A DNA stretch of 63,316 nucleotides, the filler included. It is 6 parts of 6 records of this genome, joined end to end, with 100 filler letters (N's around TTAATTAATTAA, not from the genome) between each part and the next. Parts side by side here need not be neighbours in the genome. Positions count along the whole stretch, not along the records: positions 1 to 16,790 come from DRR723986_6351; 5 more parts are not named here. One strand, 5' to 3'. How positions within the stretch are numbered: position 1 is the first letter of the stretch; each line of letters starts with the position of its first letter. Of the stretch, positions 2,401 to 56,498 are shown piece after piece. A model generated the notes under the pieces. The model ran no database searches and had not been told where the DNA came from. It saw only the letters and a program-made list of their open reading frames with translations. The translations under genes were made by a program, and so were the position numbers.

Positions 2401-5355
2401 CTACCGAAGCCTGCTCTTGGCAATTCCCTCACGTTCGCGAACGCGACGAGTGACGAATACTCCGGCACCGACCAACAGTGGCGGAATTGGTGGGATGCAA
2501 ACGGCCGCAATTTTGTAGCGGCTCTGCAGTTGCTTGATACTGTTTTCGGCCTCACGACGGCTGTCGCGAATCTTTGCATCGCGCTCTGCCGCCAACTTCT
2601 GACGTTTGATGGCCAGTTTTCTGCGCGACGCTTGCTGCTGCTCGGCCAATGTGCTCAACGCCCCCTGCAGAATCTCGAACTTGCTTGGGTCAATTGCCCC
2701 TTCGGACTGCAGCTTGTTGACTCGTTCTTGAAATTTGGCAAGCGACTTTTGATTCTCTTCCTCAGCCTCTTTCATTTGCAAATCAAACTTCTCCTGAAAT
2801 TCCTTTTGTCGCTGAACCTCTTCCAGTCGGAATCCAGCAGCTTGATCTTCAAAGAGTGCAAGCGTTACGTGCTTCGGCTCGCGCGAGCGAATCGTAGGGT
2901 AGCTCTCCTCACCAGCGAGAACATCAATGACGTTCAAGATGAAGCTAATATTCTGAAGCCGCAGATCAAGCTCTTCGAATTGTTCGGGGCGCTTTCTGTT
3001 CTCGCTAAAGAACCGGTGTGCGAAATCGAGGTCTGCGACGTAAGCGGCGCGAATTGGTTTGGCTTGCTGCGGTGAATTCTGAACAGCTTCATCTTCACCG
3101 GATTCTTCTCCAGCTCCTTTCGAAGCTGCCTCACCGTCTACTTTACCGCTACCAGAAGCGACACCTTCAACAAGGACGGCTAGAACCTGATCTTCTTCCA
3201 AAGCGGGGCCTTGTAGTACTTGGAGCTCCGCCGAGGATGCACCACCCTCCAGATTGCTCCGCACGTCGTCAAACTTGATTCGCCCCGAAACGCTGCCTCG
3301 AGTCTTGACGAGCTCAGTGATTCGCAGGTCCTCTCGGCCAGCTTCGGTCTTGATCGCCCCAGCGTACAGGAACATGAGTTCTCGTAGTCCAGCCGTCGCC
3401 AGACTCTCTTGGTTGAGATTTTGGTCTTCGATGGATTGATTGGTGACAAACAACCACTGGTCGGTTGCATTAACCAAGTACTGAAGTTTTGGGTGCGGAT
3501 TGTATTGTTGCCACACGATGTCTGGGTTGATTCCATTCATGCCGGGGGTCTGCGGAATCTCAAGACCAAGGGTCTTCCAAAGCGGCTGCATCTCCCCCTT
3601 TGGTTCCGGTGGCTGGCCGCCCATGCCCATCATGCCACCTTGCGGCTGCTTCGGCTGCCCAGTTCCCGGTACTGCTCCGAAAGCAAACGGAAATGGGTCC
3701 TCGAAAATAGCCGTTGGAACACCAGCCTGCACCGCAGCGACAACATTCGGCAATTGAGTAGGCGTTAACGAAGAAGGCTGTGCAACCAGGAGAACGTCGT
3801 AGGAACTGGTCGAGATCGGACTGCTTGGATCGACTTCCTCGACGTCGTACTGCTTTTCTAACTCGTCAACGATCGGCTCGCGTGGAATCTGCTGGAAGGA
3901 TCCGCCAGCCATTGAGAAACCGCCCATTAGATTGGCGTCTGTTTTGACGATACCGAGCTTACGCCGTTTCGGCTGGGACACGGTGTCGATCGAACGCACC
4001 AATTCGTACTCAACTGGAATACCGGGTTCAAAGAATGGAATGACGACTTTGGACAATCCACTTCGGATGGCCGCGCCAAGCACTATCTCTTGATCACGGA
4101 ACGCTCCCTGTTCTTGCACTCGGACGCTCTGAACTTCGATTCCGTACTGTTTCTCCGCACGGATGGCTTCTTCGCCGGTTGGCTCGATGCCGTCGTTGAT
4201 TTGCACTTGTAGCTTTACTTTCCGACTGGATGCAAGTGCTTGAAATTCCTTCAGAAGAGCGATTAAGTCATAGCGAGTCTGCGCGAATCGTTCAGGAATG
4301 TCCCTCGAAATGTAAGCGTCGATGACGATCGGACGTTCTGGCTCAAGTTGCCGGATGACCGTCCGAGTCATTGGGCTGAGCGAGCTGACTTTGTCAGCCG
4401 TCGCATCGTACCGGACGCGATCGTTGTTTCGGAAGAAGTAGCTTGCCGCGAAGACGACTACAGCGAGCAACAAGATGCGGAATAGATAGTGGAGGAACAT
4501 AACGTTCCCGTTGCGACCGCCACTCCAGTGACGACGACCAATCAGAACCATGCAAAAGTACAGGCCAAAGCAGAGCAGAAGAACAAAGAACGAAATAGGC
4601 GCAAGGCTGACGACGCCGCGCCCAAAGTTATCGAACTGCTCCTCGATGGAATAAGTCGACATCGCTTGAGCCACGGCACGCTTGCCAGCGATCACGTCCG
4701 CCGCGCCGGCGAATACCAGCGGAGCGTTGAAAAGCGCGCCTAGGATAAATCCGACGGTTAAGTTGCTGGTTAAGAAGGAAGCGATCATCCCAACGGCTAG
4801 CATGGCCAAGCCGATGAACCAGTAGCCTAGATAGTTGGCTAGGAAGAGCCCTGTATCGACTTCACCTTTCGATAGGAACAGCAGCACCAAGTAAGTCGAA
4901 ACCTGCGAGAAGAGCAGCGAAACGGTGTAAATCGATGCGGTTGATAGGTATTTACCAATAACAATGTCAAAGTCGTCTGCTGGTAAAGTCAAAAGCAGCT
5001 CGTCAGTTCCCTGCCGCTTTTCATCTGCCCAGATACTCATCGTAATGGCGGGAATGAAGAACAACATGATCCACGGGAACCAGAAATTCAACTGATCCAG
5101 GTTGGCCAGGTTGGAATTGAAAAAATCGTTCGGCCAGAAGGCCGCCATACTTGTCAGCAGCACGAACAGGCACAGAAAGACGTAGCCGGTTGGATTGGCG
5201 AAATAGCCTAGGAAGTTTCGCCTTAGAACGGCATAAGCGGCCCGCTTTCGCATCGCGAGAAAACCGATCAAGACCATCGCGACGAGAATAAAGATCAAGT
5301 CGACGACGACCAAAGCCGCTAGGTTTAACAGCAATTGAACGACTTCAGATGACAT
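2401..5355 (-). CDS. Fused ABC-2 permease (GldF-like) / GldG-family auxiliary protein
   Basis: 'YFANPTGYVFL', 'PAITMSIWADEKRQGTDELLLTLP', 'RYDATADKVSSLS' motifs, then a large periplasmic domain and a C-terminal TM helix. Confidence 0.85.
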   Translation of the reverse strand: MSSEVVQLLLNLAALVVVDLIFILVAMVLIGFLAMRKRAAYAVLRRNFLGYFANPTGYVFLCLFVLLTSMAAFWPNDFFNSNLANLDQLNFWFPWIMLFFIPAITMSIWADEKRQGTDELLLTLPADDFDIVIGKYLSTASIYTVSLLFSQVSTYLVLLFLSKGEVDTGLFLANYLGYWFIGLAMLAVGMIASFLTSNLTVGFILGALFNAPLVFAGAADVIAGKRAVAQAMSTYSIEEQFDNFGRGVVSLAPISFFVLLLCFGLYFCMVLIGRRHWSGGRNGNVMFLHYLFRILLLAVVVFAASYFFRNNDRVRYDATADKVSSLSPMTRTVIRQLEPERPIVIDAYISRDIPERFAQTRYDLIALLKEFQALASSRKVKLQVQINDGIEPTGEEAIRAEKQYGIEVQSVRVQEQGAFRDQEIVLGAAIRSGLSKVVIPFFEPGIPVEYELVRSIDTVSQPKRRKLGIVKTDANLMGGFSMAGGSFQQIPREPIVDELEKQYDVEEVDPSSPISTSSYDVLLVAQPSSLTPTQLPNVVAAVQAGVPTAIFEDPFPFAFGAVPGTGQPKQPQGGMMGMGGQPPEPKGEMQPLWKTLGLEIPQTPGMNGINPDIVWQQYNPHPKLQYLVNATDQWLFVTNQSIEDQNLNQESLATAGLRELMFLYAGAIKTEAGREDLRITELVKTRGSVSGRIKFDDVRSNLEGGASSAELQVLQGPALEEDQVLAVLVEGVASGSGKVDGEAASKGAGEESGEDEAVQNSPQQAKPIRAAYVADLDFAHRFFSENRKRPEQFEELDLRLQNISFILNVIDVLAGEESYPTIRSREPKHVTLALFEDQAAGFRLEEVQRQKEFQEKFDLQMKEAEEENQKSLAKFQERVNKLQSEGAIDPSKFEILQGALSTLAEQQQASRRKLAIKRQKLAAERDAKIRDSRREAENSIKQLQSRYKIAAVCIPPIPPLLVGAGVFVTRRVREREGIAKSRLR

Positions 5356-6816: not shown

Positions 6817-6907
6817 CTGCAGCTTGTTTCGCGGAGAAGCTCTGTTTCGACCGCGAGTTGATTGCCGCTAACCCTTATTTTTACCATGGATTGGTACGCT
6901 AGCCACG

Positions 6908-7360
6908 ATGACTTTGACAAGCAAGACAACGGTTGCAAAGCCGAACGAGATTCCGAAGAAATGGTTTCACGTCGACGCAGATCAGCAAGTGCTGGGGCGA
7001 ATGGCTAGTGATATCGCGGTAATCCTGATGGGCAAGCACCGCCCAACGTACACACCTCACGTTGATACTGGCGATTTCGTCGTCGTGACCAACGCAGAAA
7101 AGGTTGTGATGACTGGCACCAAGATGGAGCGTCGTCATTACGCTTGGTACACCGGCTACACCGGCCAGAAGCTGGAAAGCTACGCTGATCGCCAGAAGCG
7201 GAAGCCAGAAGATTTGGTCATTCACGCTGTGCGTCGGATGTTGCCGAAGAATAAGCTTGCGACACAGATGCTTTCCAAGCTGAAGGTTTACGCTGGCGAA
7301 GAGCACCCACATCACGCTCAACAATGCGAAACAATCGAAGTCGGCCAGAAGAAGAAATAG
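6908..7360 (+). CDS. rplM: 50S ribosomal protein L13
   Basis: 'VLGRMAS...LMGKHRPTYTPHVDTGDFVVVTNAEK', 'AVRRMLPKN', 'HPHHAQ'. Confidence 0.98.
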   Translation: MTLTSKTTVAKPNEIPKKWFHVDADQQVLGRMASDIAVILMGKHRPTYTPHVDTGDFVVVTNAEKVVMTGTKMERRHYAWYTGYTGQKLESYADRQKRKPEDLVIHAVRRMLPKNKLATQMLSKLKVYAGEEHPHHAQQCETIEVGQKKK

Positions 7361-7424
7361 CTGACGCTCGAATCCGAAATCTCCGAAACACAATTCATTC
7401 CAATCAAACTCGTCAGAATCGACC

Positions 7425-7838
7425 ATGGTAGCAGTCAAGAAAGACAAGATTAACGGTGACGCACTCGGCACAGGACGTCGAAAGAGTTCAGTCGCGCGAG
7501 TACGAGTTCGCCCCGGTTCCGGTAACATCACCGTCAACGGAAAGCCGCTTGAGGTTTTCTTCCCAACGGTTCAGCAGCAAAATGCGGTCAAAGAAACGCT
7601 TGCTCACGTTGAACAGTCGTCGAGCGTCGACGTAATCTGCCGTGTCAACGGTGGAGGAATCACCGGTCAAGCTGGAGCGATTCGCATGGCACTGGCTCGT
7701 GCGTTGTGCAGCCACAATGAAGAGCACTTCCAGCCGCTTCGTGACGATGGATTCCTGACGCGTGATTCGCGTATGAAGGAACGTAAGAAGCCTGGTCTTC
7801 ACGGTGCACGTCGCGGTACTCAGTTCAGTAAGCGTTAA
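7425..7838 (+). CDS. rpsI: 30S ribosomal protein S9
   Basis: 'GTGRRKSSVARV', 'GGGITGQAGAIR', 'LTRDSRMKERKKPGLHGARRGTQFSKR'. Confidence 0.98.
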   Translation: MVAVKKDKINGDALGTGRRKSSVARVRVRPGSGNITVNGKPLEVFFPTVQQQNAVKETLAHVEQSSSVDVICRVNGGGITGQAGAIRMALARALCSHNEEHFQPLRDDGFLTRDSRMKERKKPGLHGARRGTQFSKR

Positions 7839-7883
7839 TCGCGACTCTGCCGCGGCACCTTCCGCGAGCAAAGAAGAACATCG

Positions 7884-7913
7884 AAACAGCACTGCACATG
7901 CAGTGCTGTTTTT
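7884..7913 (+). terminator. Rho-independent terminator of rplM-rpsI
   Basis: AAACAGCACTGCA-CA-TGCAGTGCTGTTTTT. Confidence 0.85.
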
Positions 7914-8047
7914 CGTAGTAGAACGCCGGTGAATACATCGCCGGCCTCTACTGCATACCACCTTGAACGTCGCCGCTTGGGGCTAGCGCTTGAGTCAAGC
8001 GATCCCTCAACCGGTAATCGTCCCCACTGCGAGCAAAGAGACTCCCC

Positions 8048-11205: not shown

Positions 11206-13788
11206 GTGCATCGTCCTGATTGCCTCGACTCAAGACTGCACACCAACATGCACTCCCCCAACAACAAGCCCGGGCTCTCACTTCGCGAGTCGGTGCACGC
11301 ATCTGCTTTGACCTCTTTTGCGCGATGCGTTCGGTTGACAGCAATTATTGCGCTCTGTGGATTGGTCGGTTGCGGTGGCTGCCGCAAAGAAGAAAAGCTG
11401 ACGAAGGAAGAATTGGCCCGCCGAGCCAAAGAGAATGAGAAGAATATCGTTCTGAGCGGCTTCCAAGTCTTGCCGCAAGACAGCGAACAAAGCGGTGTGA
11501 TCAAGACCAAGGCTCAACATTGGTTCGAGACTAAGCAGACCGTTAAGTCGAATCGAGAAGACTTGCAGGTGTTGAGCGTCGGCTCGATCGTACGCGGGCG
11601 AGATCCAGTCACGTTACCTGGGACCGACATTCAAGCATCGTACGCCCGTCGAACCAGCCTGCCACGCGGCCAGCAAAAAACCGTCGACCTGCAGTTCTTC
11701 GTCCCCTCTGCACCACCGTCCAATGATCCGGACGGTCTCGCTCCGATTAAGAACGTCGGCTTCCAAACTGAGTTGCTCTCCTGGCCACTGCAAACTCCAC
11801 TTATTGCCACACCTCCACCGCGAACCACAAGACAACTCGCTGAACATGAGTTCCAGTTGGTGGCACTGGGGCCTAACGCCAACAGCTATACCTTCCTAGC
11901 AAAATCCGATGCGGTGCTATGGAAGGCGGACACTCTGATCATGTCCGATGAGAAGACACGCAGCTACTATTTGACGACGATCCGCCCCAACAACAATGTG
12001 TACCAATTCCCCAGGTCCATGATCACTTCGACGTCGGTTGCGGCTATCGTTTGGGACGACGTTGCACCGGAGACGCTCTCCGAAGACCAGCAGACGGCGA
12101 TCCTAGACTGGGTTCACTGGGGCGGGCAATTGATTATTAGCGGGCCCGCTAGCTGGTCACGCTTGCAAAATTCTTTCCTTAGTCCATATCTTCCGGCTTC
12201 CGCCGGCGCTGCGACCGAGCTGACAACAAGCAACTTCGACGCGATGTCGGCCAAATGGGTTGTGCCGGATCGCTCCTCAATTGGCAAGCCAGCTTTGGCA
12301 ATCGATGGGCCTCCAATTGCTGGCCTCGAGATGAAACTGTCCGAAACTGGTCAGTGGCTTCCCGATAGCGGTGAGATGGTCGCCGAAGCGGCGGTGGGAC
12401 GTGGCCGCATCGTGATGACTGCATTTCCGCTGCGCGAACCACGCATTTACAATTGGAAGTACTTTGCGAACTTTCTATCAACCGGGCTTCTTCGGCGAGC
12501 GCCGCGTGATGTCAAGCGTCGCCCGGACGACCGCCTGCTATGGCAAGTCTTCGCCGGTGCCAATGAGGGAAGTGAACGCGACGCCAAGCTGCACAGCAAC
12601 TTTCGTATTCTCTCCCGAGATCTGCCATCGAAGTATCGCAACGAGGCCACCGCCGGCGAGCTGAACCTAGTCGGCGACGCGCCGGCTGAAGAAGCAATCA
12701 GTTGGGCCGGCGGCGCTGCTTGGAATGACTATTCCGCACTTTCGATAAGAGCCGTTGAGACGTTGCGAGCTGCTGCCGGAATTGAGCTACCAAGCAGGAA
12801 GACGATCCTGATGCTTCTTGCCGGTTATCTGTTGGTCCTTGTGCCTCTGAATTGGCTAGTTTTCCGGATCATCGGCCGCCTAGAGTTGGCATGGGTCGTG
12901 GCACCGATCATGGCGATTACTGGCACGATCGTCGTAACGCGAGTTGCTCGACTCGATATTGGTTTCGCCCGTCGAACAACCGAAATTGGATTGCTTGAAC
13001 TGCATGAGGGATACAACAGAGCACACCTCACTCAGTTCATCGCTTTGTACACATCGCTATCGACAAATTACGCTGTCGAACTGCCCGAGAACGGGAGCGT
13101 CGCTTTGCCAATAGCGGACGCGTCGCGACAACAATCCCGTGCGGGCAGCGGCAGCCGTCAGATACGAACCAATTTTGGTCGCAGCGAAGGTGTGACGATC
13201 GAACCACTGACCGTCTATTCGAACTCAACCGAAATGCTTCACGCCGAACAGATGGTTGCACTCGACGGCGGCCTTCAGTTGGGCAAGCGTGAATCCGGTG
13301 ATTTCGCGATCAAGAACGGCACCGGAATCGACATTCAAAGTGCGTTGGTACTTTACCGGGACGAGTCTGGTGATGTCTATCATGCCTGGCTTGGCGATCT
13401 GGATTCCGGTACGACAATGACGTTGCAGTACAAGTTGCTTCGATACTCCGAAGCGTTCAAGCCTTGGTCAGAGGACCCTATTACTCAACAGGTCTTTCCC
13501 AAGGAAGATGAGCTCAGTGAAGAGAACGCCAATTTGTGGGTCGGCGGAATTCTTCACGAAGTTGCCCAAAAGACGCCTCTAGCAATCGGTCAAACCCGAC
13601 TAATTGGTTATTCAGACAAGCGTACCGGAGAATTGAACCTTGTGCCCGCGCAAGATCAATTCGACTCGAGAAGCGTCGTGGTAGCGCACCTCTCCCCTCA
13701 GGTGCTTGCCGCTGTTGAAAGTGATGCGGCCATCTTGAGCAAGGAAGTCATTGACCAAAGCCCCGCCGGACAAGACTCGTCGAACTAA
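11206..13788 (+). CDS. Large membrane/secreted protein of unknown function, ABC-associated
   Basis: 860-aa ORF with a lipobox-like 'LVGCGGC', a GATase-like 'AILDWVHWGGQLIISG', and a two-TM hairpin 'YLLVLVPLNWLVFR...AWVVAP'. Start uncertain. Confidence 0.7.
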   Translation: MHRPDCLDSRLHTNMHSPNNKPGLSLRESVHASALTSFARCVRLTAIIALCGLVGCGGCRKEEKLTKEELARRAKENEKNIVLSGFQVLPQDSEQSGVIKTKAQHWFETKQTVKSNREDLQVLSVGSIVRGRDPVTLPGTDIQASYARRTSLPRGQQKTVDLQFFVPSAPPSNDPDGLAPIKNVGFQTELLSWPLQTPLIATPPPRTTRQLAEHEFQLVALGPNANSYTFLAKSDAVLWKADTLIMSDEKTRSYYLTTIRPNNNVYQFPRSMITSTSVAAIVWDDVAPETLSEDQQTAILDWVHWGGQLIISGPASWSRLQNSFLSPYLPASAGAATELTTSNFDAMSAKWVVPDRSSIGKPALAIDGPPIAGLEMKLSETGQWLPDSGEMVAEAAVGRGRIVMTAFPLREPRIYNWKYFANFLSTGLLRRAPRDVKRRPDDRLLWQVFAGANEGSERDAKLHSNFRILSRDLPSKYRNEATAGELNLVGDAPAEEAISWAGGAAWNDYSALSIRAVETLRAAAGIELPSRKTILMLLAGYLLVLVPLNWLVFRIIGRLELAWVVAPIMAITGTIVVTRVARLDIGFARRTTEIGLLELHEGYNRAHLTQFIALYTSLSTNYAVELPENGSVALPIADASRQQSRAGSGSRQIRTNFGRSEGVTIEPLTVYSNSTEMLHAEQMVALDGGLQLGKRESGDFAIKNGTGIDIQSALVLYRDESGDVYHAWLGDLDSGTTMTLQYKLLRYSEAFKPWSEDPITQQVFPKEDELSEENANLWVGGILHEVAQKTPLAIGQTRLIGYSDKRTGELNLVPAQDQFDSRSVVVAHLSPQVLAAVESDAAILSKEVIDQSPAGQDSSN

Positions 13789-13861: not shown

Positions 13862-14788
13862 ATGATTGAGCTGTTTGATTTTGGCAAAGATTACGGCGAG
13901 TTCACCGCGGTAAAGTCTTTGAACTTGAAGATCGAAGCCGGAGAAATGTTTGGTTTCATCGGTCCCAACGGTGCGGGAAAGAGCACCACGATCCGCTTCC
14001 TAGCTACTCTCTTAAAGGCAAGTCGTGGTGATGGGACTGTAAACGGCTTCAGCGTCAATCGCGATCCGATGTCGGTTCGGCGAAGCATTGGATATATGCC
14101 GGACGATTTTGGGGTCTACGACGGGATGAAGGTCTGGGAGTTTCTAGATTTCTTCGCCGTCGCATATAAGATCGGACGCACCCAACGCAAACAGGTCATC
14201 CTGGATGTACTTGAGCTATTGGACCTAGGCCATAAGCGGGATGATTTTGTCAATGGATTGTCCCGAGGAATGAAGCAACGGTTGTGCCTTGCCAAGACAC
14301 TGGTTCATGATCCACCGGTGCTGATTCTTGATGAACCAACCAGTGGATTGGACCCACGAGCACGAATCGAAGTCAAGGCACTACTCAAAGAGTTGCGTCG
14401 AATGGGCAAGACGGTTCTCATCAGTAGCCACATTCTCTCGGAGCTTGCAGATTGCTGCTCGTCTATTGGTATCATTGAACGAGGTGAATTACTTGCCCAC
14501 GGTCCAATCGACAGCGTTTACAAGCAAATACGTCGCAATCGCCATGTCGATATCCGTTTCAATCATTCCATTGAAGCGGGCGTCTCCATTCTTCGCTCAT
14601 GCCCCGAACTTCGCGACATCGAGGTCGAAGACAATCGTGTTCTCGCGGAGTTTGAAGCCGACGATGAGCAACTTGCTGAAATCATGAAACGACTCATTGA
14701 CGGAGGCGTTGGCATGCGGAGCTTCAACGACAAGGATCCGACCCTAGAGGACGTCTTTATGATGGTCACCAAGGGCCTTGTGACCTAG
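13862..14788 (+). CDS. ABC transporter ATP-binding protein
   Basis: GPNGAGKST, LSRGMKQR, ILDEPTSGLDP, SSH. Confidence 0.92.
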   Translation: MIELFDFGKDYGEFTAVKSLNLKIEAGEMFGFIGPNGAGKSTTIRFLATLLKASRGDGTVNGFSVNRDPMSVRRSIGYMPDDFGVYDGMKVWEFLDFFAVAYKIGRTQRKQVILDVLELLDLGHKRDDFVNGLSRGMKQRLCLAKTLVHDPPVLILDEPTSGLDPRARIEVKALLKELRRMGKTVLISSHILSELADCCSSIGIIERGELLAHGPIDSVYKQIRRNRHVDIRFNHSIEAGVSILRSCPELRDIEVEDNRVLAEFEADDEQLAEIMKRLIDGGVGMRSFNDKDPTLEDVFMMVTKGLVT

Positions 14789-14873
14789 GCTCGGTTCACC
14801 CCGCGGCCAGCAGACTCACCCGGCTATCGGATTGGGACCACTGGTGAATCCTAAAACAGGAGGCTTAATCCCC

Positions 14874-15689
14874 TCAAATCATCAGCTCGGGTAGCAAAAC
14901 GGATAGAGCCCGGCGGGTGAGTCCAGCAATCAGCATGGCCCACGCAAAACTCAAGAACGTGCCGATGATCACATATTCCGTCGCAGCACGCTGATGCCAA
15001 TTCTTGATGTCACCGAAGCGAAGAATTGACTTTGTGGCGATAAGAAAGCCAATTCCCTGCGGATGTCCGCTCAGCACAAACAGCAGGACCAGCAGCCTTT
15101 CTAGCCATCCAATGTAGCGGCCACCGTCAGGCAGGCCTTTCAAGATATTCCCGATCTCCGCTTCGTCATTCTCCGTGATCGAGTCGTCTTCGACGTCATC
15201 GATCATCCCGCTGGTTATCTTGCCAATCAGTATTCCACCAGCGGGGCCGCACAGCGTTAGCCCAGAAACGAGCACCAGCGTTGCTAGATAACAATCGGTA
15301 CCGTCGAACACCTGTGCGACGGGGAGCCATGATTTCCACGAGCCATCGTGAAACAGCGTGGGCCACAGGGCTGCGATGCCGATGATTGTTGTCGTGTACA
15401 GAAGCTGTTCGATGATGAACGGCCATGGCCCGTCGACGTCTGTGACTACTCTTGGGAGAACAATCAACCTTAACAAGTGTACTGCGCAGTGCGCGGCAAT
15501 TAGTATCGCCAGCATGAGGAGCGAGACTGTCCCGAGTAGCGCAGTCGAAGCGATCAGCGGTATTGGCAAATATGCAAGCACGCCCCACCATTTGGTCGTC
15601 CTTAGCTCGCAGACTGCGGCTGGCTGCAGGATGAACTGACTGATCAGATGTGCCGCCAGCAGCGTTGTCGCTGTTTCTGCAAAATGCAT
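14874..15689 (-). CDS. DUF3307 (SatE-like) multi-pass membrane protein
   Basis: C-terminal family motifs 'GGRYIGWLERLL', 'IGFLIATKSILRF', 'TEYVIIGTFLS' and N-terminal 'AHLISQFILQP'. Lies downstream of satD. Confidence 0.8.
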   Translation of the reverse strand: MHFAETATTLLAAHLISQFILQPAAVCELRTTKWWGVLAYLPIPLIASTALLGTVSLLMLAILIAAHCAVHLLRLIVLPRVVTDVDGPWPFIIEQLLYTTTIIGIAALWPTLFHDGSWKSWLPVAQVFDGTDCYLATLVLVSGLTLCGPAGGILIGKITSGMIDDVEDDSITENDEAEIGNILKGLPDGGRYIGWLERLLVLLFVLSGHPQGIGFLIATKSILRFGDIKNWHQRAATEYVIIGTFLSFAWAMLIAGLTRRALSVLLPELMI

Positions 15690-15769
15690 TTCCGCGCCCT
15701 CAGTTCACCCGACACTTTCGTAACGTGCTGCCAACCCCGATTCCAGGCTAGAATCGGTACTTCTGCGAT

Positions 15770-15845
15770 ATCACCCAAAAACGGTTGATTTCTCAATATC
15801 ACCCAAAAACGGGTGATTACCAAAAATCACCCCAAAATGGGTGAT
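15770..15845. repeat. Array of three 20-bp palindromes ATCACCC-N6-GGGTGAT at an exact 28-bp period
   Basis: 15770 ATCACCCAAAAACGGTTGAT; 15798 ATCACCCAAAAACGGGTGAT; 15826 ATCACCCCAAAATGGGTGAT; 8-bp AT-rich spacers. Confidence 0.92.
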
Positions 15846-15861
15846 CCCCCAATTTCGCCCG

Positions 15862-16524
15862 CTACCAATCGATTGTTTCGAAAGCTTCGACTGCGGCGTT
15901 GAGGGCTTCTAATTGCGAGGCCTTCAGTGTCTTTGACACAACCTGATAGGATATGGCCAATTCGTCAGCTATATCGCGTTGCGTTAGCTGGCGAGGCGAA
16001 ATGGCAAGGCACATCATTTCGGCCTGGCGTTTTGACCAGCCAGAAATTAAAGCACCACTAAGTTTAGCGATTGCAGCAAGCAATTTTCCGGAGGAATCGT
16101 CCAGTTCATCCGGTAACGATATCGCCAGGTAGGAATCCGACTTGAGCTCATCAAGACCGTGACCCGAACGCACAAATGCATCACCGTCCGATCTCGATAT
16201 ACTCACACGTGAAATCCGATCTACTGAACCGATTCCAATCGAAACGCGGGAGTCACACCCGGTCGATATCAGAGCAGCACGCAAATAAACCGCCGCTCGA
16301 AATGCGTAGCTTGGCTGAGCGAGCAAAGCTTGCCACTGATCACCGCGAAAAATCTCCGGCTTTCCGCGCAGCACAGATTTCTTGGCATGCCAACCATTAA
16401 GCTCTTCTAGCGAACTGATGACAAGCTGCCTCGCGGCTTCCCGTTCGGGCGTACTCAACGCCGTTGAGTCGACCAGATCGCCGGTCAGCACGGCGAACAC
16501 CGGGGGTCTCTTTTCTTCACCCAT
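15862..16524 (-). CDS. SatD-family protein (nucleotide cyclase/palm-like domain + C-terminal HTH)
   Basis: 'AVLTGDLVDS', 'FRGDQWQ', 'RVSIGIG', 'DGDAFVRSG' and HTH 'LTQRDIADELAISYQVVSKTL'. Confidence 0.82.
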   Translation of the reverse strand: MGEEKRPPVFAVLTGDLVDSTALSTPEREAARQLVISSLEELNGWHAKKSVLRGKPEIFRGDQWQALLAQPSYAFRAAVYLRAALISTGCDSRVSIGIGSVDRISRVSISRSDGDAFVRSGHGLDELKSDSYLAISLPDELDDSSGKLLAAIAKLSGALISGWSKRQAEMMCLAISPRQLTQRDIADELAISYQVVSKTLKASQLEALNAAVEAFETIDW

Positions 16525-16648
16525 GCAACATTCTCAAGTAAGTCGATTACTCCGCGCCCGTGCAAACTCGACACAGGTTATCGCTTCTTTCTGCCCTGGC
16601 AGCAAGATTACTGAACGTCCAAGCTTAAGCAGCGGCGGTTCCACCCAA

Positions 16649-16790
16649 TCAGCCGCAACGCCATCGTGCGGTACCCGTATCAACCGCTTCGCGCCAGCGT
16701 GCGGTTCCACCCGATCTGCCGCTACGCGCCAGCGTGCGGTTCCCTGATACAACGGAACCCGACAACCGCAGGCTGGCGCCAGGCGGCTGA
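16649..16790. repeat. Cluster of planctomycete REP-like palindromic repeats at the contig end
   Basis: Three direct copies (16649, 16680, 16715) of approximately TCNGCCGCNNCGCGCCAGCGTGCGGTT and one inverted copy at 16764-16790. Confidence 0.75.
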
Positions 16791-16890
16791 NNNNNNNNNN
16801 NNNNNNNNNNNNNNNNNNNNNNNNNNNNNNNNNNTTAATTAATTAANNNNNNNNNNNNNNNNNNNNNNNNNNNNNNNNNNNNNNNNNNNN
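16791..16890. other. Artificial contig spacer
   Basis: 44 N + TTAATTAATTAA (stops in all six frames) + 44 N. Confidence 0.99.
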
Positions 16891-29343: not shown

Positions 29344-29443
29344 NNNNNNNNNNNNNNNNNNNNNNNNNNNNNNNNNNNNNNNNNNNNTTAATTAATTAAN
29401 NNNNNNNNNNNNNNNNNNNNNNNNNNNNNNNNNNNNNNNNNNN
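29344..29443. other. Artificial contig spacer
   Basis: 44 N + TTAATTAATTAA + 44 N. Confidence 0.99.
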
Positions 29444-36491: not shown

Positions 36492-36591
36492 NNNNNNNNN
36501 NNNNNNNNNNNNNNNNNNNNNNNNNNNNNNNNNNNTTAATTAATTAANNNNNNNNNNNNNNNNNNNNNNNNNNNNNNNNNNNNNNNNNNNN
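36492..36591. other. Artificial contig spacer
   Basis: 44 N + TTAATTAATTAA + 44 N. Confidence 0.99.
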
Positions 36592-49630: not shown

Positions 49631-49730
49631 NNNNNNNNNNNNNNNNNNNNNNNNNNNNNNNNNNNNNNNNNNNNTTAATTAATTAANNNNNNNNNNNNNN
49701 NNNNNNNNNNNNNNNNNNNNNNNNNNNNNN
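49631..49730. other. Artificial contig spacer
   Basis: 44 N + TTAATTAATTAA + 44 N. Confidence 0.99.
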
Positions 49731-56398: not shown

Positions 56399-56498
56399 NN
56401 NNNNNNNNNNNNNNNNNNNNNNNNNNNNNNNNNNNNNNNNNNTTAATTAATTAANNNNNNNNNNNNNNNNNNNNNNNNNNNNNNNNNNNNNNNNNNNN
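56399..56498. other. Artificial contig spacer
   Basis: 44 N + TTAATTAATTAA + 44 N. Confidence 0.99.

Follow-up and report, generated by a model that had tools for sequence, protein, structure and literature searches.

Background

The sat operon of Streptococcus mutans encodes SatD and SatE, the latter presumably a DUF3307 protein. Here we analyse a gene pair of the same kind, satD followed by a DUF3307 gene, both on the minus strand near the end of the first contig (positions 1-16790) of a stretch of 63,316 bases composed of six joined contigs (the window). Like SatD and SatE of S. mutans, the window proteins pass the Pfam families PF16264 and PF11750, and their genes are adjacent and co-stranded with satD first. 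Unlike the S. mutans operon, the window pair does not adjoin ffh or ylxM. The satD/DUF3307 pair is a widespread and unstudied two-gene unit, consisting of a DNA-binding regulator, a row of its putative binding sites and a membrane protein gene that it most likely switches.

In S. pyogenes, satD was the single accessory gene scoring as essential in a pangenome meta-analysis of transposon sequencing data; 178 of 249 genomes carry it, and strains in which it is essential belong to emm1, emm28 and emm49 (PMC11323703). In S. suis, a small RNA targets the mRNA of satD, which is annotated there as a DNA-binding protein (PMC12005413), and a list of vesicle cargo of S. mutans includes SatE (PMC13492114). 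The palm protein OptS of the Panoptes system, an mCpol, uses Asp6 and Asp57, and its membrane partner is toxic without active OptS (PMC12657218). No biochemical work on the SatD or DUF3307 families was found in a full-text literature search.

Structure of SatD

15862-16524, minus strand: satD, 220 amino acids (open reading frame, PF16264 match, AlphaFold model, Foldseek search)
16105-16524, minus strand: SatD palm (cyclase-homology-like) domain, residues 1-140 (profile match to Ma1120, conservation in 260 sequences)
15877-16038, minus strand: SatD C-terminal helix-turn-helix (HTH) domain, residues 163-216 (weak HTH Pfam matches, model helices, half-site tracking)

The window SatD matches PF16264 with 35.8 bits (gathering cut-off 29), residues 13-206 being aligned with positions 4-198 of the 211 positions of the model. 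The branch to which the window pair belongs is loosely covered by this model, which is matched by 24 of 66 relatives at E<=0.1. The motifs quoted in the initial annotation of the locus are all present in the translation: TGDLVDS (residues 14-20), RGD (60-62), RVSIGIG (93-99), DGDAF (113-117) and the HTH stretch (180-200).

An AlphaFold (AF2) model was built from the alignment of the 66 relatives, with a mean predicted local distance difference test (pLDDT) value of 95.7. In it, a palm (approximately residues 8-137) is connected through a linker helix (144-161) to a helical HTH domain (165-216). In the model the palm has the beta-alpha-beta-beta-alpha-beta type of topology, with strand 10-17, helix 25-44, strands 57-59 and 63-68, helix 71-86, strands 92-99 and 101-103, helix 115-126 and strand 133-136, followed by helices up to residue 216. 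The leading Foldseek matches in PDB were the class III adenylyl cyclases Ma1120, CyaC and Rv1900c, together with a Pycsar cyclic UMP synthase, a GGDEF domain and Cas10 (E 2e-4 to 1e-3). This is the outcome anticipated by the initial annotation, which had proposed a structure search against class III cyclases. The Foldseek probability was 1.00 for 4wpa, 2bw7 and 1ybt, with template modelling (TM) scores on the target of 0.53-0.58 for 4wpa and 1ybt and 0.40 for 2bw7; across cyclase and GGDEF domains the target TM score was 0.55-0.58. A profile of the 66 relatives compared with PDB sequences produced a match to Ma1120 (E 1.8e-4), in which D16 and D62 coincide with the two metal-binding aspartates of the cyclase. 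These two residues (16477-16479 and 16339-16341, respectively) are the candidate metal ligands of SatD.

Conservation was considered in a set of 260 sequences, comprising the 66 relatives, 143 cluster representatives from a profile search and most of the other protein-search matches. D62 and G121 are present in all 260 sequences, D16 and G15 in 259, Q65, R93 and G114 in 258, S20 in 257, R60 in 254 and S120 in 253. The near-invariant pocket is formed by T14-G15-D16...S20, R60-G61-D62-x-W-Q65, R93 and G114..S120-G121. In cyclases, the equivalent pocket holds Mg-triphosphate. Judging from the alignment, the conservation of the SatD pocket is at the level of active or ligand-binding sites, unlike that of a decayed domain, and such near-absolute conservation suggests that the palm does something specific. 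On the model, SatD is a minimal palm of the class III cyclase/GGDEF/Cas10 type with a C-terminal HTH, in which the half of the site that binds metal and triphosphate is retained.

The HTH region of the window protein has weak Pfam matches to MarR_2, HTH_Crp_2 and HTH_10, and 18-22 of the 66 relatives match HTH_24, Sigma70_r4 or MarR_2. The HTH helices of the model span residues 182-189 and 193-202, and the putative recognition helix (approximately residues 192-202, positions 15919-15951) includes Q194 and K198. The fusion of a palm to an HTH, suggested earlier from the motifs, is borne out by the model and by these matches. A dedicated search for the palm in longer, fused proteins was negative, which is weak evidence; the best 150 representatives in the profile search all have 186-333 amino acids.

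The satD-DUF3307 gene pair

14874-15689, minus strand: gene of a DUF3307-family multi-pass membrane protein, 271 amino acids (PF11750 match, AF2 model, alignment with 49 relatives)

Both open reading frames (ORFs) named in the initial annotation are present on the minus strand, and both products score above the Pfam cut-offs. Full-length SatD is encoded in 20 of 401 Planctomycetota genomes (including L029). At 16 of these 20 loci a DUF3307 gene lies directly downstream on the same strand; two of the remaining loci are at contig ends and two have no DUF3307 gene. The reverse search of the same genomes with a DUF3307 alignment found 21 genomes, 17 of them common to the SatD set. In one further planctomycete genome a divergent SatD gene adjoins a DUF3307 gene.

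An independent sample of 80 metagenome loci was retrieved by conserved DUF3307 peptides alone. Full-length SatD is encoded directly upstream on the same strand in 62 of 62 loci with at least 650 nucleotides of upstream sequence. The other 18 loci are too short to judge, and in six of them the SatD C-terminus is seen at the contig edge. Relatives were found in 8 of 72,556 plasmid records, and all six annotated plasmid loci carry the pair (Pseudomonas, Sphingomonas, two of Salinivibrio, Vibrio, Segatella). These observations support a fixed, obligate two-gene unit, and the proposed pairing of a palm protein with a membrane protein is thereby upheld.

The SatD family is large. The profile of the 66 relatives, compared with 1.84 billion representatives, retrieved 4,839, 2,861 and 1,308 clusters (at 50% identity) at E<=1e-3, 1e-10 and 1e-30, respectively, and many members are annotated only as hypothetical. 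A scan of genome contigs with a single protein recovered only two loci. No tblastn match to SatD or to the DUF3307 protein was observed in 50,697 phage records, and pattern scans of IMG/VR yielded no confirmed relative.

Candidate operators between the genes

15770-15860, no strand assigned: candidate operator array of three palindromes, between the satD stop and the DUF3307 start (repeat and palindrome search, similar arrays in relatives)
15737-15757, minus strand: inverted repeat with 7-bp arms, between the array and the DUF3307 start codon (palindrome list, hairpin in the RNA fold)

The spacer between satD and the DUF3307 gene is 172 nucleotides long and holds three palindromes ATCACCC-N5/6-GGGTGAT with a period of 28 nucleotides. 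They are situated at 15771-15788, 15799-15816 and 15827-15844 and follow the pattern (A)TCA(C/A)CC-N6-GGGTGA(T), 18-20 bp in length; in the copy closest to the DUF3307 gene one arm is ATCAACC. The exact pattern has two matches in the window and none in 100 shuffled sequences. When up to two mismatches are allowed, the top three matches in the window are the three palindromes of the array. The phased array noted in the initial annotation is thus real and occurs nowhere else in the window.

Similar arrays are found in relatives. The two closest loci, L001 and L002, contain in the same spacer two units TTCAACC-N6-GGTTGAA, 28-29 nucleotides apart. The Sphingomonas plasmid locus L035 has two units TCAACC-N6-GGTTGA, 28 nucleotides apart, and L005 has two units of the GCAACC type, both again between satD and the DUF3307 gene. 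At the loci where satD and the DUF3307 gene overlap, the array is upstream of satD instead, an example being TATAAGCC-N4-GGCTTATA in a clade of eight planctomycete genomes. The longest array seen, in the spacer of L083, comprises six tandem units in 28-nucleotide phase, in which GACAACC drifts to GGCAACC.

The regulatory sequence of the 62 metagenome loci (20,288 nucleotides) contains 40 copies of the strict motif CAnnC-N6-GnnTG (1.97 per kb), as against 20 copies in the other 407,796 nucleotides (0.049 per kb), an approximately 40-fold difference in density. Pairs of this motif phased by 27-30 nucleotides are present at nine loci. Perfect palindromes with 6-nucleotide arms are present at 50 loci, with phased pairs at 22; their density is 6.70 per kb in regulatory sequence versus 2.16 per kb in the rest.

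The half-sites vary together with the residue at the position of K198, four places after the conserved glutamine of the recognition helix. CAACC is accompanied by lysine (20 of 21 loci), CAGG by glutamate or aspartate (8 of 8), CAGC by arginine (5 of 5) and CAAG by glutamine (3 of 5), and the window itself combines CACCC with lysine. This tally was made by eye at 91 loci, of which 48 fall into clear classes, 37 have other, unclassified palindromes and six have none. Such a match between helix and half-site is what a cognate factor and its site should show. It would amount to a testable code of DNA recognition, in which lysine, glutamate/aspartate, arginine or glutamine corresponds to the two middle bases of the half-site. 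Conservation, enrichment and half-site tracking support the prediction that the palindromes behave as SatD operators, in agreement with the control of the membrane protein gene through HTH and array put forward in the initial annotation. A partition or iteron-like role of the array was also considered, and was dropped as nearly all copies are chromosomal.

Another possibility is that the palindromes act as RNA, forming a terminator or attenuator after satD or an element of RNA processing or stability. Indeed, the spacer folds far better than shuffled sequences (-64.2 kcal/mol, z -3.89). In the unit closest to satD, a run of T comes after the stem on the coding strand, and a site resembling a terminator was predicted at 15832-15811. 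However, the central run of the palindromes on this strand is T-rich in the window, L001 and L002 and A-rich in L005, whereas the half-sites are palindromic throughout, and thus a two-fold symmetric protein site fits better than a terminator. Moreover, the array of operon-type loci precedes satD, away from any end of its transcript, the half-site follows the residue of the recognition helix, and no Rfam match was observed at E<=1. Taken together, an RNA-level function in place of SatD binding is highly improbable.

The DUF3307 membrane protein

The DUF3307 protein of the window matches PF11750 with 25.5 bits (gathering cut-off 23), the weakest score among 50 relatives, of which 49 match. Its N-terminal part is the DUF3307 domain (residues 8-109), and its C-terminal part is a conserved domain lying beyond any Pfam model. 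The AF2 model is all-helical (pLDDT 90.6). A fold search against PDB produced nothing below E 0.46, and the ESM Atlas contained no usable named match. No SAVED, CARF, cNMP-binding or other sensor domain was detected by Pfam.

In the alignment with 49 relatives, the form linked to SatD has invariant C-terminal residues G185, G190, I193-G194, L196-E197-R198 and R234, within the motif GGRYIGWLER ... KSILRFG. Near-invariant polar residues within the membrane are H14, D18, Q22, H40, H67, D71 and D94-Q95. The window copy deviates from this pattern by the replacements D18Q, H40Y, D71H and D94E, and also by H98Y, at a position occupied by histidine in all nine relatives aligning there. The seven closest relatives keep the polar residues, and the window copy alone has replaced five of them. 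It also lacks the acidic loop insert of approximately 85 amino acids and the low-complexity C-terminal tail of these seven proteins, and its C-terminal domain is about 85% identical to theirs. The window locus thus adds two variants to the family, an array between the genes instead of upstream of satD and a partner without the conserved histidine and aspartate residues.

Short phage DUF3307 proteins (119-131 amino acids) in the viral structure library BFVD match the N-terminal domain only, with probability at most 0.99 and E above 1; the matches A0A1L7N193 and A0A7G7WXF7 are from the phages Ralstonia RP12 and Rhizobium P9VFCI. The long form linked to SatD was not found in phage records. At the loci L017, L019, L052, L058, L144, L145, L148 and L158, satD is followed by a gene that aligns with the C-terminal half alone (approximately 125-160 amino acids) of the profile of the long form, indicating that the C-terminal domain can stand alone with SatD.

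Proposed mechanism of regulation

From the fold, the residue conservation, the obligate linkage, the conservation of the operators and their co-variation with the helix, we infer the following mechanism. SatD would be a one-component transcription factor, whose effector-binding module is the minimal palm of the cyclase/GGDEF/Cas10 type. It may act as a dimer, the C-terminal HTH reading the 18-bp palindromes. Occupancy of the three phased sites ahead of the DUF3307 gene would gate its transcription, most likely by repression. A nucleotide or another phosphorylated ligand, bound or turned over in the palm pocket, would set the affinity for DNA. Overall, we consider it rather probable that SatD is a repressor controlled by a ligand, probably a nucleotide or metal, and that by binding to the array it gates the gene of the membrane protein.

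Several observations weigh against this interpretation. The strict motif was found at just 27 of the 62 metagenome loci. The correlation between helix and half-site is inflated by shared ancestry, several of its rows being near-duplicates, and it covers 48 of the 91 loci. No match to a sigma-70-type promoter consensus was found in 14700-16790, and hence a promoter in the spacer is assumed rather than seen. The stable RNA fold of the spacer, described above, also has to be counted here. In the window the array is downstream of satD, and thus it leaves the control of satD itself unexplained. Given the loss of five near-invariant polar residues, the regulated product may function in another way, or more poorly, than its counterparts in relatives. 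Finally, no experiment on any family member was found in the literature searched.

SatD and nucleotide-signalling enzymes

The initial annotation had aligned the SatD motifs with the palm domains of class III nucleotidyl cyclases, GGDEF proteins and mCpol, a family reportedly named by Burroughs et al. in 2015. The palm fold and the pair of metal-binding aspartates are retained, as seen from the AF2 model, Foldseek, the Ma1120 profile and the 260 sequences. The claim of a palm fold is right, whereas SatD, judged by the defining residues, does not belong to the class III or GGDEF enzyme families. The lysine that specifies the substrate in class III cyclases is not conserved, position 58 of SatD being R in 94, F in 90 and I in 29 of the 260 sequences. 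The transition-state asparagine is not conserved either, position 118 being mainly V, T or E, and at the position of the class III arginine (122) there are 95 R, 66 H and 49 Q; the latter two positions were set by eye past the end of the HMMER alignment and are less certain. The hairpin that corresponds to the GGDEF motif reads R-G-D-x-W, with G, S or A (Q in the window) in the fourth position and without the catalytic glutamate. None of the 66 relatives matches the cyclase, GGDEF or mCpol (PF18182) Pfam models at E<=0.1.

These data bear on the proposal that the pair is a second-messenger defence system similar to CBASS, Pycsar or Panoptes, in which a cyclic or linear nucleotide made by SatD would act on the DUF3307 protein as an effector and abort phage infection. 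The palm fold and a catalytic-type pair of aspartates, kept almost without exception, would fit such a role, and the 16/62 spacing of this pair resembles that of Asp6 and Asp57 in the active OptS (PMC12657218). In addition, a comparison of language-model features placed SatD nearest to named clusters of mCpol and Cas10 palms (score 0.80), which is at the level of a lead only. On the other hand, the residues specifying the base and stabilizing the transition state are replaced as described, and the partner has no recognizable nucleotide sensor. PADLOC has no family for the DUF3307 protein, its best match to SatD is weak (E 0.0024) and falls on the HTH, and the pair does not fit its CBASS and Pycsar models of synthase and effector. 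The case for an mCpol/Panoptes system is similar, as none of the 66 members matches PF18182 and the partner shows only DUF3307. Searches of NCBIfam and PHROGs produced nothing useful for the two proteins. The presence of an HTH and of an operator array to go with it speaks for a transcriptional output, and relatives are absent from the phage records and IMG/VR scans described above.

Genomic context

The neighbours of the pair were surveyed at 19 of the 62 confirmed metagenome loci, namely those that came first among the loci having 3.5 kb or more on either side and fitting a size cap, the duplicates L116 and L134 being dropped. The three nearest ORFs per side, called greedily, gave 104 ORFs. 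The survey has no control set and is descriptive, and therefore it demonstrates neither enrichment of defence genes nor its absence. The flanking ORFs are mostly metabolic or housekeeping. No Pfam family occurs more than twice among them, and a third conserved gene was for this reason dropped from consideration. PADLOC matches among the 104 ORFs are mad3 (twice), MTase_II, PsyrA, PDC-S05, PDC-S23 and MzaA, some of which are defence-type genes. The single clear defence-island context seen is that of L035, a plasmid of Sphingomonas insulae (NZ_CP048421.1, 69191-76681), where the pair is flanked on one side by a TIR-domain protein with an HTH/ImmA pair and on the other by a Pycsar effector, an E2-associated protein and a cyclase. 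Also pointing towards defence are the transposases next to the Vibrio and Segatella copies, and the toxin-antitoxin genes and the tRNA-Cys gene described below. The neighbourhood check suggested in the initial annotation revealed no recurring neighbour, and the distribution of the pair is patchy (20 of 401 genomes). Overall, a defence role of the pair is not supported, and the synthase that signals to a membrane effector, as originally proposed, is quite unlikely to be the function of SatD.

The repressor described above may have a further significance if the DUF3307 protein, when made in excess, harms the membrane. SatD would then keep it repressed, and loss of SatD or of its coding DNA would kill or arrest the cell, as in a toxin-antitoxin or addiction cassette. 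This explanation overlaps the ligand-controlled repressor and goes further in taking toxicity to be what the system is for. The accessory and yet essential satD of S. pyogenes follows a pattern typical of antitoxins and prophage repressors (PMC11323703). However, this gene shares only the Pfam family with the window SatD, and its DUF3307 neighbour is unconfirmed. In the 10.3-kb plasmid pPFL of P. fragi, the pair is found amid genes of a ParS-type antitoxin, MazE-like and RelE/ParE proteins and integrases. In L002, which together with L001 is closest to the window locus, a tRNA-Cys gene (4139-4212) lies approximately 190 nucleotides upstream of satD and may mark a hot spot of integration. The patchy distribution in Planctomycetota and the differing flanks of the window pair and its closest relatives point in the same direction.

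On the other hand, in one planctomycete clade the pair keeps an argD-like aminotransferase, ornithine carbamoyltransferase, RNase PH, Ham1 and pseudouridine synthase as neighbours, and this constancy across genomes suggests stable inheritance rather than addiction to mobile DNA. Relatives are rare among plasmid records, as noted above, and the toxicity of the DUF3307 protein is an assumption. For these reasons we regard the addiction cassette as unlikely, albeit worth keeping in view beside the ligand-controlled repressor. If the partner is toxic, the pair would be a new module of toxin-antitoxin or guard type, which would explain the odd essential accessory gene of a streptococcal pathogen.

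The host of the window is a planctomycete, given that the closest relatives of its proteins (61-65% identity) include proteins of Neorhodopirellula lusitana and of a Fuerstiella genome bin, both called SatD family protein by their sources. As described in the initial annotation, the pair is convergent with an ABC locus, the ABC ATPase gene being at 13862-14788 on the plus strand. The flanks contain ABC transporters, an acyltransferase and FabA-like genes. The flanks of the close relative L001 are quite different, and thus only the satD/DUF3307 pair moves or stays. The end of the contig is occupied by a repeat.

16630-16790, no strand assigned: array of 35-nucleotide repeats upstream of satD, at the contig end (repeat search, depth in public runs)

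The array consists of 3.4 tandem copies of the unit and one inverted copy. It has no match in the other five pieces of the window and is not present upstream of satD in L001 and L002. Contigs from four public runs stack on it, with a summed depth of 296.6 (run X1, last bin) versus approximately 10 over satD, and have many loose ends and alternative joints there, indicating that the unit is a dispersed repeat in related organisms. Repeats bounding the locus had indeed been reported in the initial annotation. The array looks like a dispersed element similar to repetitive extragenic palindromes, is probably outside the satD/DUF3307 module, and probably caused the break of the assembly at 16790.

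Four other ORFs of the first contig have no Pfam match at E<=0.001: 178-2307 (709 amino acids), 6899-7537 (212) and 7488-7961 (157) on the minus strand, and 11206-13788 (860) on the plus strand, immediately upstream of the ABC ATPase gene. The joints between the contigs (16791-16890, 29344-29443, 36492-36591, 49631-49730 and 56399-56498) are paired runs of 44 N with 12 bases between them. As the six contigs were joined, genes past 16790 need not be neighbours of the pair.

Comparison with known systems

Class III cyclases (Ma1120, Rv1900c, CyaC) share with SatD the palm fold, the aligned pair of metal-binding aspartates and the order of strands. However, the SatD palm is shorter (approximately 135 amino acids), is fused to an HTH instead of sensor or membrane modules, and does not match the Guanylate_cyc family of Pfam.

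The mCpol protein OptS of Panoptes is a minimal palm of similar size, with two catalytic-type aspartates separated, as in SatD, by about 46-51 residues, and Panoptes likewise is a two-gene unit including a membrane protein, which in Panoptes is toxic unless held in check. Partners of mCpol bear nucleotide sensors (S-2TM-beta, CARF, SAVED; PMC12657218), whereas none was detected in the DUF3307 protein. Also unlike mCpol, SatD has an HTH and candidate operators and no match to PF18182 or in PADLOC.

One can imagine a transcriptional guard with inverse nucleotide signalling, by analogy the logic of Panoptes implemented through a repressor instead of the sensor domain of an effector. A nucleotide constantly bound or made by the palm would keep SatD clamped on the array, and its drainage would release DUF3307 expression; such an arrangement is a distinctly improbable one in our estimate. 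The drain could be a phage sponge or nuclease, or a collapse of energy, upon which SatD would fall off and a membrane-damaging DUF3307 protein would be made, a sequence of events that we consider equally speculative. If true, it would explain satD as an essential accessory gene of S. pyogenes.

No regulator using a cyclase-type palm as its sensor was found described in the literature searched. If the ligand-controlled repressor is correct, a transcription factor with such a palm as the reader of a signal would be a new kind of one-component regulator. One-component regulators in which the sensor domain is an enzyme-like or degenerate nucleotide-binding domain are represented by the CARF-HTH protein Csa3 and by degenerate GGDEF receptors. 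SatD may be compared with regulators of the Csa3 type, which likewise join a nucleotide-binding fold to an HTH that acts on palindromic operators beside the controlled gene.

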